6,100 bases of DNA from a virus (taxonomy: Duplodnaviria; Heunggongvirae; Uroviricota; Caudoviricetes). The stretch's first letter is position 1. The number at the start of each line of letters is the position of its first letter. The position numbers were made by a program, and so were the translations under genes. The notes under the pieces were generated by a model. The model did no database searches and had not been told where the DNA came from. It saw only the letters and a list, made by a program, of their open reading frames with translations. The stretch is from IMG/VR virus record IMGVR_UViG_2657245050_000002. One strand, 5' to 3'. This document shows positions 1-6,100 of the stretch, one piece after another.

Positions 1-21
1 AAAAAAGCCGCACAGGCGGCC
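1..21 (-). terminator. Terminator-like hairpin (GCCGC-CTGT-GCGGC) followed by a T-run, immediately downstream of D; the T-run is cut by the window edge
   Basis: On the minus strand, positions 21..1 read G-GCCGC-CTGT-GCGGC-TTTTTT: a 5-bp GC stem, 4-nt loop and at least 6 T. It lies 21 nt past the D stop codon (42..44). The stem is short, so the function is uncertain. Confidence 0.45.
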
Positions 22-41
22 TTTAGTGATGAAGGGTAAAG

Positions 42-374
42 TTAAACGATGCTGATTGCCGTTCCGGCAAACGCGGTCCGTTTTTTAGTCTCGTCGCTGG
101 CAGCCTCCGGCCAGAGCACATCCTCATAACGGAACGAGCCGGACTTGTAGAACGTCAGTGTGGTGCTGGTCTGGTCAGCAGCAACCGCAAGAATGCCAAC
201 GGCTGCACCGTCGGTGGTGCCATCCCACACAACCAGCTTACGGGTAGTGCCATCCAGCATCAGCGGGGTCATTGCAGGCGTTTTCGCACTCAATCCGCCA
301 GGCGCAATTGCTGTATGAGCCGGATCACTGTTACCCAGCGGCTGGTAATGGTTAAACTCTTCTTTTGACGCCAT
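42..374 (-). CDS. D: Head decoration protein gpD, full length (110 aa), divergent allele
   Basis: The 110-aa [113 protein letters not shown] matches lambda gpD in length. The C-terminal half matches my recollection of lambda gpD almost exactly; about 10 substitutions cluster in the first 50 residues. A GAGG Shine-Dalgarno sits about 7 nt upstream of the ATG at 372..374. Confidence 0.9.
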
Positions 375-383
375 AACTGCCTC

Positions 384-439
384 TTATACCGGTAAAGCTT
401 CAGGTGTATTAAGTAATTCTTTATTGGTATCAGATGCCA
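384..439 (-). pseudogene. Orphan 3' end (about 17 codons plus stop) of a divergent C/Nu3-like gene
   Basis: The minus strand reads GCA TCT GAT ACC AAT AAA GAA TTA CTT AAT ACA CCT GAA GCT TTA CCG GTA TAA, i.e. [17 protein letters not shown]. This parallels the C terminus of the intact C gene in this window (...NPASDAVNDLLNTPV*). It has no start codon or upstream reading frame of its own and is followed by the RBS and ATG of the divergent D. Confidence 0.5.
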
Positions 440-559
440 CAGCATCAGCGGGGTCATTGCAGGCGCTTTCGCACTCAATCCGCCGGGCGCGGTTGCGGTA
501 TGAGCCGGGTCACTGTTGCCCAGCGGCTGGTAATGGGTAAAGGTTTCTTTGCTCGTCAT
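440..559 (-). pseudogene. D: Truncated lambda-type D 5' fragment (first 40 codons); translation would run out of frame into the downstream sequence
   Basis: An ATG at 557..559, 9 nt after the C stop, opens [40 protein letters not shown], matching the lambda gpD N-terminus. Homology stops abruptly after codon 40 at position 440/439. The frame then continues through unrelated sequence ([21 protein letters not shown]...) to a stop at 290..292, inside the real D gene. The ORF track lists this as 290..565 because of an in-frame ATG two codons upstream. Confidence 0.6.
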
Positions 560-568
560 AAACATCCC

Positions 569-964
569 TTACACTGGTGTGTTCAGCAAATCGTTAACGG
601 CATCAGATGCCGGGTTACCTGCAGCCAGCGGTGCCGGTGCACCCTGCATCAGACGATCCAGCGCAGTGTCACTGCGCGCCTGTGCACTCTGTGGTGCTGC
701 GGCCAGAATGCGGCGGGCCGTTTCCACGGTCATACCGGGGGTTTCTGCCAGCACGCGGGCCTGTTCTTCGCGTCCGTGAGCCTCCTCACAGTTGAGGATC
801 CCCATAATGCGGCTGTTTTCTGCCGCAACCGCAGAGGTGATCTGCGCGTTCACGTCCGGCTGCGCCGCGCTGGCGTTTTCGCCCTCCGTAGCTGGCACCA
901 CGTCAGTAACGTCAGCCTGCGAAGCAGTGGCTGAAACAGTTGTTGATTGAGTCTCTTTGGTCAT
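569..964 (-). CDS. Nu3: Scaffolding protein gpNu3, nested in frame in the 3' part of C (131 aa from the internal ATG)
   Basis: An internal in-frame ATG at 962..964 is preceded by a perfect AGGAGG Shine-Dalgarno at 969..974 and opens MTKETQSTTVSATASQADVTDVVP... The product is Ala/Gln-rich and acidic. A longer nested form starting at MDATRR (569..1174) is an alternative annotation that I cannot exclude. Confidence 0.65.
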   Translation of the reverse strand: MTKETQSTTVSATASQADVTDVVPATEGENASAAQPDVNAQITSAVAAENSRIMGILNCEEAHGREEQARVLAETPGMTVETARRILAAAPQSAQARSDTALDRLMQGAPAPLAAGNPASDAVNDLLNTPV

Positions 965-1955
965 TCGCCCTCCTGAGAGACGGGATTTACGTGCATCCAG
1001 TGCATCACGCATAACGGTGATCGCATCGGTGCTGTTGACAAGTTCATCAGCCAGTCCGGCATCAATGGCCTCCTGACCGCTGTACACTGCAGCCTCTGTA
1101 TCCAGCACAGCCTGCACAGACAGGCCGGTATATGCCGACACCTTCTGCGCAAACATCCGGCGGGTTGCATCCATCCGGGACTGCAGTGTCTCCCGGACGT
1201 CATCCGGAAGATGGCTGTAGGGGTTGCCATCCACCTTATGGCTGCCGCTGTAAATCAGCGTGATTTCCACACCCTGTTTCTCCAGCGCAGCACCGTAATT
1301 ACTGTGAGCCATCATGACGCCGATGGAGCCTGTCCGGGCGGTCTGCGTGACCAGACGCCGGGAGGCGGCACTGGCAAGCAGCTGACCTGCACTGCAGTTT
1401 ATGTCGTTGGCCAGCGCCCATACCGGTTTTATGTCTCGCACACGGGCGATGATGTCAGCACAGTCAAATGCTCCCGCCACCATCCCGCCTGGCGTAGCCA
1501 GCGCCCATACCGGTTTTATGTCACGCACACGGGCAATGATGTCAGCGCAGTCAAATGCTCCCGCCACCATTCCGCCTGGCGTGTCCATATCGAGCAGAAT
1601 GCCGTCCACCATCGGATCGCTGGCAGCCTGTTGCAGACGGGCGATAATGCCGTTGTAACCGGTCATTCCCGAATACGGCTGCAGCGCCCGTGTCCGGCTG
1701 ACCAGCGTACCGGACACCGGCAGCACGGCGATGCCGTTCATGACCTGATAACTGCGGGCCTGTCGTGGTCCGTCATCATCACCGGATAATGCCAGCGTCG
1801 CGAGTGCCTCCTGGGCAGTCAGGCTGTCGCCGGACACCGCATCCGTCAGGCGACTGATCCCAAGCTGGCCTGCAAGCGCACAAAAGAAAACCCGCGCATA
1901 AGCGGGTTCAAGCATCAGCGGCTCATTAAAAGCCATGCTGGCAATATGCGGGAGA

Positions 1956-1975
<20 letters not shown>
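569..1975 (-). CDS. C: Prohead protease / minor capsid protein gpC, carrying an in-frame 29-aa tandem duplication (468 aa here; 439 aa expected)
   Basis: The translation from the GTG at 1973..1975 reads (M)TAELRNLPHIASMAFNEPLMLEPAYARVFFCALAGQ..., the lambda gpC N-terminus. This GTG start gives the 20-nt overlap with the end of B that is typical of lambda. The track's 513-aa ORF starts at an upstream ATG (2110) that would overlap B by 155 nt, so I do not use it. The ORF is 87 nt longer than lambda C because of the duplication at 1410..1583. The CSAGQ motif that I recall as containing the catalytic Ser166 of lambda gpC follows the duplication. Confidence 0.85.
969..974 (-). promoter_or_regulatory. 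Shine-Dalgarno (AGGAGG) for the internal Nu3 translation start inside C
   Basis: The minus strand reads TCTCAGGAGGGCGAATGACC, with AGGAGG 4 nt upstream of the ATG at 962..964. Confidence 0.6.
1410..1583. repeat. Imperfect tandem direct duplication, two copies of 87 bp, inside gene C
   Basis: Units at about 1410..1496 and 1497..1583 align base for base with 5 mismatches (plus-strand 1436, 1449, 1459, 1483, 1496 against 1523, 1536, 1546, 1570, 1583). Both copies encode the same 29 aa, TPGGMVAGAFDCADIIARVRDIKPVWALA. The junction could equally be placed 1 nt to the left. Confidence 0.9.
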
Positions 1976-5656
<3,681 letters not shown>

Positions 5657-5682
<26 letters not shown>

Positions 5683-6100
5683 TCAGCAACCCCGGTATCA
5701 GTTCATCCAGCGCGGCTGCTTTGTTCATGGCTTTGATGATATCCCGTTTCAGGAAATCAACATGTCGGTTTTCCAGTTCCGGAAAACGCCGCTGCACCGA
5801 CAGGGGGATCCCGTCGAGAATACTGGCAATTTCACCTGCGATCCGCGACAGCACGAAAGTACAGAATGCGGTTTCCACCACTTCAGCGGAGTCTCTGGCA
5901 TTTTTCAGCTCCTGTGCGTCGGCCTGCGCACGCGTAAGTCGATGGCGTTCGTACTCAATAGTCCCTGGCTGCAGATCTGTCTCGCTGGCCTGCCGCAGTT
6001 CTTCAACCTCCCGGCGCAGCTTTTCGTTCTCAATTTCAGCATCCCTTTCGGCATACCATTTTATGACGGCGGCAGAGTCATAAAGCACCTCATTACCCTT
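5657..6100 (-). CDS. Nu1: Terminase small subunit gpNu1, partial (N-terminal about 33 codons lie beyond the window edge)
   Basis: The reading frame is open from the window edge (KGNEVLYDSAAVIKWYAERDAEIENEKLRREVEELRQAS...) to a stop at 5657..5659 (...LIPGLLSEYIEQSG*). This matches lambda Nu1 residues about 34 to 181. The GTG at 6088 used by the ORF track is an internal codon, not the start. Confidence 0.9.

Follow-up and report, generated by a model that had tools for sequence, protein, structure and literature searches.

A known natural allele of the lambda decoration gene D, very probably with an intragenic mosaic cassette

The reading frame at positions 42-374 of the stretch of DNA that was analysed (6100 nt, called the window below) encodes, to judge from its sequence matches, a functional and naturally common second allele of the lambda head-decoration protein gpD, which is here called type-2. 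The protein is not new: it has been catalogued, it is common and it is carried by isolated phages. As a whole the gene is very probably a known natural gpD allele with an intragenic mosaic cassette. A change of evolutionary history inside D is supported, and it is abrupt also at synonymous and non-coding sites.

The window and its genes

An exact-protein look-up identified the window as the complete contig AOQR01000068.1 of the draft NCBI assembly GCA_000397545.1. Its identity to lambda is 98% across most of its length, and its genes follow each other in the order Nu1-A-W-B-C-D. The gene E, which is found 55 nt downstream of D in loci with an identical D, lies outside the contig. The normal region measures 5840 nt against 6100 nt for the window; the surplus of 260 nt is due to two imperfect tandem duplications. 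The features are listed here in window coordinates.

1-6100, minus strand: the window, with Nu1 (partial), A, W, B, C/Nu3, a 40-codon D fragment and full D
1-41, minus strand: start of the D-E spacer, a hairpin and then a T-run; lambda-type at 4/4 class-diagnostic sites (TAACTTTACCC..CACTAAAGG)
42-374, minus strand: full-length head-decoration gene D, type-2 allele, 110 amino acids (PF02924, solved-structure match, exact RefSeq protein)
42-245, minus strand: D codons 44-110 and the stop codon (nt 130-333 of D), near-identical between the classes, Dxy 0.01-0.04
246-374, minus strand: D codons 1-43, the D part of the proposed cassette 1, with all 19 N-terminal class-diagnostic bases, near-fixed over nt 4-129 (r2 = 1.0)
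375-439, minus strand: type-2 3' end of C/Nu3 and 9-nt spacer with the D ribosome-binding site, the upstream part of the proposed cassette 1
255-612: tandem allelic pair, type-2 at 255-439 (185 nt) and lambda-type at 440-612 (173 nt)
440-559, minus strand: D' fragment, lambda-type D codons 1-40, continuing out of frame into a type-2 C-end remnant
569-1975, minus strand: C/Nu3 (head protease with nested scaffold), Peptidase_S49, with a lambda-type 3' end and a GTG start, holding an 87-nt duplication
1410-1583: second tandem allelic pair, 1410-1496 and 1497-1583 (87 + 87 nt, 5 SNPs), in the S49 protease domain of C

An Rfam scan of the window gave zero RNA families. The start codon of C, at 1973-1975 on the minus strand, is GTG where the lambda equivalent is ATG.

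Comparison of window D with lambda gpD

Window D was matched by the family PF02924 (HDPD) over residues 4-107 with a score of 74.8 bits (cutoff 29.1), and the solved lambda gpD chains 7vii, 7vik and 8xqb aligned with it gap-free over residues 1-110 (E = 3.3e-62, 90% identity). Lambda gpD (PDB 1C5E, 1VD0, 7VII, 7VIK) likewise has 110 residues and is encoded between C/Nu3 and E behind its own ribosome-binding site. A single-sequence AlphaFold2 model of D reached a mean pLDDT of 37.9, which is too low for use.

The deposited lambda D (J02459 5747-6079) served as the reference for an alignment with window D. Replacements were found at 11 of the 110 positions (T2A, T6E, T8N, Q13L, T23I, A32T, T42G, S43T, S44T, A49V and T80S), 10 of them within residues 2-49. 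Four of these (A2, E6, N8 and L13) are within the capsid-binding arm and six are in residues 23-49, whereas residues 50-110 are the same as in lambda save for T80S. The initial annotation had claimed such a concentration near the N-terminus, and the deposited sequence bears it out, the differences not being spread evenly. Its list of substitutions was right at all other positions, but the residue that it called S79 is really S80 and Q13L had been overlooked.

At the DNA level 27 differences were counted, 23 of them within nt 1-146. The clustering was significant for residues as well as for nucleotides (hypergeometric P = 0.0012 and 5e-6, respectively), and a maximum-chi-square permutation test of window D against lambda D gave P = 0.001. 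When all nucleotides were used the breakpoint in the latter test fell at nt 23, a position that reflects the dense cluster at the 5' end and not a block edge; with third codon positions it fell at codon 43.

Part of this count is peculiar to lambda, whose Q13 and S44 are in the minority: L13 and T44 prevail among wild lambda-type alleles. L13 is found in wild lambda-type alleles, in type-2 alleles and in the phi80-group outgroups, and T44 in wild alleles of both classes, the outgroups having S44 as in lambda. From the common wild lambda-type allele window D differs at nine residues (2, 6, 8, 23, 32, 42, 43, 49 and 80). In lambda J02459 (L001) the D codons 13 and 44 occupy 5783-5785 and 5876-5878.

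Two classes of D and their distribution

The sample consisted of 104 D genes with their flanks from IMG/VR, GTDB genomes, lambda and one complete E. coli genome. These genes formed two discrete classes, lambda-type (n = 68) and type-2 (n = 36), and over codons 1-43 none of the 104 was intermediate. The signature of type-2 is A2, T/S3, E6, N8, I23, T32, G42, T43, V49 and S80, of which V49 is polymorphic in both classes. The IMG/VR loci L027 and L028 encode a protein identical to window D, their genes departing from it by a single synonymous base (nt 186). RefSeq lists precisely this protein as 'MULTISPECIES: head decoration protein [Escherichia]' with 125 contigs on record, and the type-2 class is present at 95-99% identity in about 295 complete E. 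coli genome records.

Two isolated phages, Perceval (OV696612, Bievrevirus) and PhiR47_2 (PV340567), carry the type-2 allele with S3T as the sole difference. This indicates that the allele works in viable virions and that it was already known. The finding as such matters little, the allele being catalogued and common and sub-genic mosaicism being expected in lambdoid phages.

Extent of the divergent piece

About 2.9 kb around D from 72 distinct de-duplicated loci was aligned with MAFFT. The class-diagnostic bases are arranged in two blocks, at lambda coordinates 5694-5875 and 6080-6233. Block 1 takes in some 15 codons at the end of C/Nu3, the spacer and the first 43 codons of D. It begins 52 nt before D and is unbroken as far as nt 129 of the gene (codon 43); beyond that point only nt 171 and 238 are diagnostic. 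The C tail in this block reads GNPASDAVNDLLNTPV* in the lambda type, from which the type-2 form differs by a 12-nt indel. Block 2 comprises the D-E spacer and E codons 1-33, with MSMYTTAQLLAANEQKFKF..RESYP in one class versus MSVYTTAELLASTQHHFKF..RETYP in the other. In the window the upstream part of block 1 (375-439) matches strain SCU-482 (L002 6998-7062) and all type-2 loci, and it is detached from the rest of C in the contig.

In the conserved half of D the bases at nt 171 (synonymous) and nt 238 (T80S) are still linked to the class, with r2 = 0.94 at both, so that the boundary is a sharp drop in the density of differences and no clean switch. A mosaic boundary inside D had been proposed near codon 50 at the outset. 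Its existence is supported, but it is situated at codons 43-49 and the divergent piece already begins in gene C.

This arrangement would be explained by a recombination cassette of ~190 bp (cassette 1) that starts about 15 codons before the end of C/Nu3, crosses the spacer and stops at D codon 43. The cassette would have come from a more diverged lambdoid lineage, and the remainder of D would share the recent history of the surrounding head genes.

Mosaic history or unequal constraint

Between the classes dS was 0.34-0.37 in codons 1-43 versus 0.04-0.06 in codons 44-110 (Fisher P = 0.002-0.016). The cassette thus exceeds the remainder of D 6-9-fold in synonymous divergence, and the two parts of the gene have a similar dN/dS. 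This implies that the asymmetry results from different histories and not from relaxed constraint alone. Upstream of D the non-coding spacer and the C tail, including the 12-nt indel, are as divergent as D codons 1-43. For the gpD proteins of phi80, HK225 and an Enterobacter phage the identity to lambda is 0.65-0.70 over residues 1-43, against 0.66-0.70 over residues 44-110. Such an even divergence means that the N-terminal part of D is not intrinsically fast-evolving.

These results bear on an explanation that needs no recombination boundary at all, in which D is one continuously diverging gene under unequal constraint, with a flexible arm and adjacent loops that change and a trimer core that is fixed. 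The position of 10 of the 11 replacements within residues 2-49 would agree with it, as would the flexibility of the arm: the crystal chain 1C5E begins at residue 16, so that residues 1-15 are missing from it, and they are flexible in solution (PMC5701804). The class-linked bases at nt 171 and 238 could likewise be taken as signs of a haplotype that spans the whole gene. It is at odds, however, with a 6-9-fold excess of dS at similar dN/dS, with a spacer and C 3' end that are equally divergent and contain an indel, with outgroup proteins that diverge evenly lengthwise, and with zero intermediates in 104 genes, and we regard it as very improbable. The synonymous sites and the outgroups led to the rejection of relaxed constraint as the sole cause of the asymmetry. 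Some small probability remains for one ancient haplotype in which patches have changed faster locally.

At A2, T32, T43, V49 and S80 the type-2 allele has the same residue as the outgroups, which indicates that lambda is derived at these positions, about half of the sites. Among the gpD groups compared no donor lineage for the cassette was identified. Phages of the phi80 type were rejected as the donor: the nearest other group (phi80, HK225 and the Enterobacter phage) reaches 70-74% identity over residues 1-43, and the divergence of the phi80/HK225-group proteins is even over the whole length, unlike that between type-2 and lambda. The homologues of phi80, HK225, mEp237 and N15, with about 71% identity, and SHP of phage 21, with about 53% (PDB 1TD0), belong to the same family as window D, occupy the same position in the head operon and have A2, T32, T43, V49 and S80 in common with type-2.

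A recombinational origin of the cassette would fit the reassortment of the two blocks in natural recombinants, in which type-2 D is followed by a lambda-type spacer and E (SCU-482) or, in one case, lambda-type D by a type-2-like E. Pervasive mosaicism of lambdoid phages was reportedly described by Hendrix, Juhala and colleagues, with sharp steps between near-identical and strongly diverged sequence and with reassortment of modules through conserved linkers, both of which are also seen here. The modules in the present case are, in contrast, sub-genic (about 150-190 bp) and have their boundaries inside genes, at the edges of terminal arms, and not at gene borders.

Linkage of the C tail, the D arm and the E N-arm

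The type of the C end was perfectly linked to the type of the D N-terminus in the sample. Type-2 D was combined with a type-2 E N-arm in 31/32 loci and in 5/5 further genomes with the exact protein. The r2 with the D class was 0.85-0.94 across block 2 and 0.5-0.7 up to E codon ~125; in the upstream direction it was about 0.1 beyond 200 nt. Further into gpE, the replacements M113R, R117L, E120N and N225H co-vary with the type-2 D class (30-32/32 loci; L027-L106). The linkage values of the sample are from IMG/VR best hits that include many related E. coli strains and are not independent, so that the linkage may partly reflect shared ancestry and not selection.

The products of the linked segments are in contact or have been reported to interact. 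On the capsid the N-terminus of gpD forms a strand in a four-stranded sheet with the E-loop of gpE and the N-arm of a neighbouring gpE, the first 14 gpD residues being disordered in the crystal (PMC5701804). The N-terminal arm is the chief capsid-binding element of the gpD fold family (PMC7602432). An interaction between Nu3 and E was detected by yeast two-hybrid (PMC3224144), and in P22 the C-terminus of the scaffold binds the N-arm of the coat protein (PMC9965877).

From these data a mechanism can be proposed in which cassette 1 would mostly be accompanied by another short cassette, made up of the D-E spacer and the first 33 codons of E. Between them the two would encode the C-terminal tail of C/Nu3 and the N-terminal arms of gpD and gpE. 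Their combination may be retained because the arms must fit each other, and recombination in the conserved C-terminal half of D would occasionally split the two cassettes. Such a co-adaptation of the arms is put forward tentatively, its chance being distinctly lower than even. It is doubtful whether the C/Nu3 tail, the gpD arm and the gpE N-arm (with E residues 113-120) make up a co-adapted capsid-contact set that exists in two discrete versions in wild lambda-like phages and is kept intact by selection over about 200 bp of conserved sequence that recombines freely. The existence of recombinants that look viable, SCU-482 among them, implies that the combination of arms is not obligatory. Were the set nevertheless real, its two versions would be natural 'compatibility types' of the contacts between scaffold, decoration and coat proteins, and mismatched sets, as suggested by the contig and by SCU-482, would cost fitness in head assembly or stability.

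Lambda gpD is widely used as a display and vaccine scaffold. A second viable natural capsid-binding arm, usually accompanied by a matching gpE N-arm, would offer a ready test of the arm residues for binding.

Strain SCU-482 (L002, NZ_CP053247.1 766058-780493) was the sole complete genome among the loci examined with a type-2 C tail and D together with a lambda-type D-E spacer and E N-arm. In this natural recombinant the crossover is located between D nt 238 and the stop codon.

The 3' flank of D

The phages Perceval and PhiR47_2 have the type-2 C/Nu3 tail in common with the window. They continue beyond D with a type-2 D-E spacer and a type-2 E N-arm, whereas the 41-nt 3' flank in the window is lambda-type. 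On the D side the contig ends 3 nt short of the next class-diagnostic site, and the nearness of this end to a diagnostic site suggests a branch between co-resident prophage types.

The full D reading frame could thus be a chimera of two prophages, in which a type-2 5' part and body were joined to a lambda-type 3' flank by a switch near the D stop codon that does not belong to any one phage. The lambda-type bases at 4/4 diagnostic sites in the last 41 nt would be explained in this way, given that all other loci with the identical D protein have a type-2 spacer and a type-2 E, and a contig that stops 3 nt before the next diagnostic site is what would be expected at a branch of co-resident types. 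Yet the same order, type-2 D including S80 and then lambda-type spacer and E, is present in the complete genome of SCU-482, and on balance we consider a chimera somewhat less probable than a natural junction. The D protein is a bona fide natural allele, so that the allele finding is unaffected either way.

In HK629 and HK225 a terminator is annotated at the position equivalent to the hairpin in the D-E spacer of the window. A pattern scan for promoters and terminators in window 1-700 gave no match; the D-E hairpin was missed by the terminator scan because the contig end cuts the T-run.

The D' fragment and the tandem duplications

A truncated D with a lambda-type N-terminus next to the full gene had been pointed out in the initial annotation. 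The fragment is there, 440-559 encoding lambda-type residues 1-40, but it is probably not biology. It carries L13, the usual wild state, and its DNA is identical to that of 27 lambda-type alleles in the sample. In the protein look-up no record was found of the D' fusion reading frame or gene product.

The fragment is part of the first tandem pair, in which 255-439 and 440-612 each run from the 3' end of C across the spacer into D as far as codon 40. Exact copies of the 185-nt and 173-nt units are present in 7 and 26 natural loci, respectively. In the second pair the 87-nt units are exact in 6 and 1 natural loci; the duplication is in frame and adds 29 residues shortly before the CSAG serine motif. 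The 468-aa C that it gives rise to (RefSeq WP_020240604.1) is recorded on this contig only. In the other contexts of the exact D protein a normal 443-aa C is directly upstream (397 aa in L116), and Perceval and PhiR47_2 have neither the D' fragment nor the duplication in C.

The two duplications have the same geometry. In gene orientation the second allele sets in, in both cases, precisely at a base that is variable between the alleles, and the first allele breaks off when exactly 26 invariant bases have followed the last difference. Along the window each unit opens with 26 identical bases and closes on a variant base. At the junction between D' and the C end there is zero microhomology, and the tandem junction had no match in 5426 complete E. 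coli genomes, GTDB representatives, IMG/VR and JGI metagenomes. E. coli genomes contain up to 5-7 related copies of the head region. The draft genome would probably hold at least two related lambdoid prophages, and two variable patches would each have formed a graph bubble (k = 27 geometry) whose alleles were both written out in series with k-1 bases trimmed from each. We infer by this mechanism that the D' fragment is probably an assembly artefact. The 29-codon duplication in C is most likely not biological. One detail does not suit the artefact geometry: the contig ends 24 bases after the last variant, not 26. Structures that resemble serial bubbles number only two in 6.1 kb.

Both structures might instead be real and have arisen by two illegitimate recombinations between co-resident lambdoid prophages, leaving a defective prophage. 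Partners for such events would be at hand in the 5-7 copies of the head region, every unit is a natural allele, and damaged prophages are common (the split portal gene in L116 and the IS66 insertion in TW10828). Real recombination would nevertheless have had to produce the same improbable geometry twice, entry on a variant base having a chance of about 0.013 for both duplications together and the 26-base exits coming in addition. It would have done so without microhomology at the D'/C-end junction, with junctions that are absent from every other genome or metagenome searched, and in a short repeat contig of a draft assembly. An origin by recombination is accordingly judged unlikely.

If an assembly artefact is indeed the cause, a false D pseudogene has been created and a false 468-aa protease is now in RefSeq (WP_020240604.1). 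Draft assemblies could be screened for false duplications by means of the signature of a serialised graph bubble, in which allelic units stand in tandem and the offset is always 26 nt.

Observations in other loci

The best whole-window match (H106, E. coli TW10828, NZ_CP127262.1 1859663-1868214) extends over 8.5 kb where 5.8 kb would be normal; the extra length is due to the insertion of an IS66-family element (tnpA/tnpC) in the head-gene region. In L116 (GCA_000208585.2, AEMF01000001.1), which has the identical D protein, the portal is split into reading frames of 135 and 398 aa and C is shortened to 397 aa; this prophage appears to be a decaying copy. A lambda-identical D was found in L007-L023 (GTDB contigs), on low-coverage contigs of unrelated organisms, among them Pseudoxanthomonas, Chromatium, Kitasatospora, Shewanella, Paenibacillus, Bradyrhizobium and an Akkermansia MAG. 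They give the impression of assemblies contaminated with lambda DNA and not of prophages.
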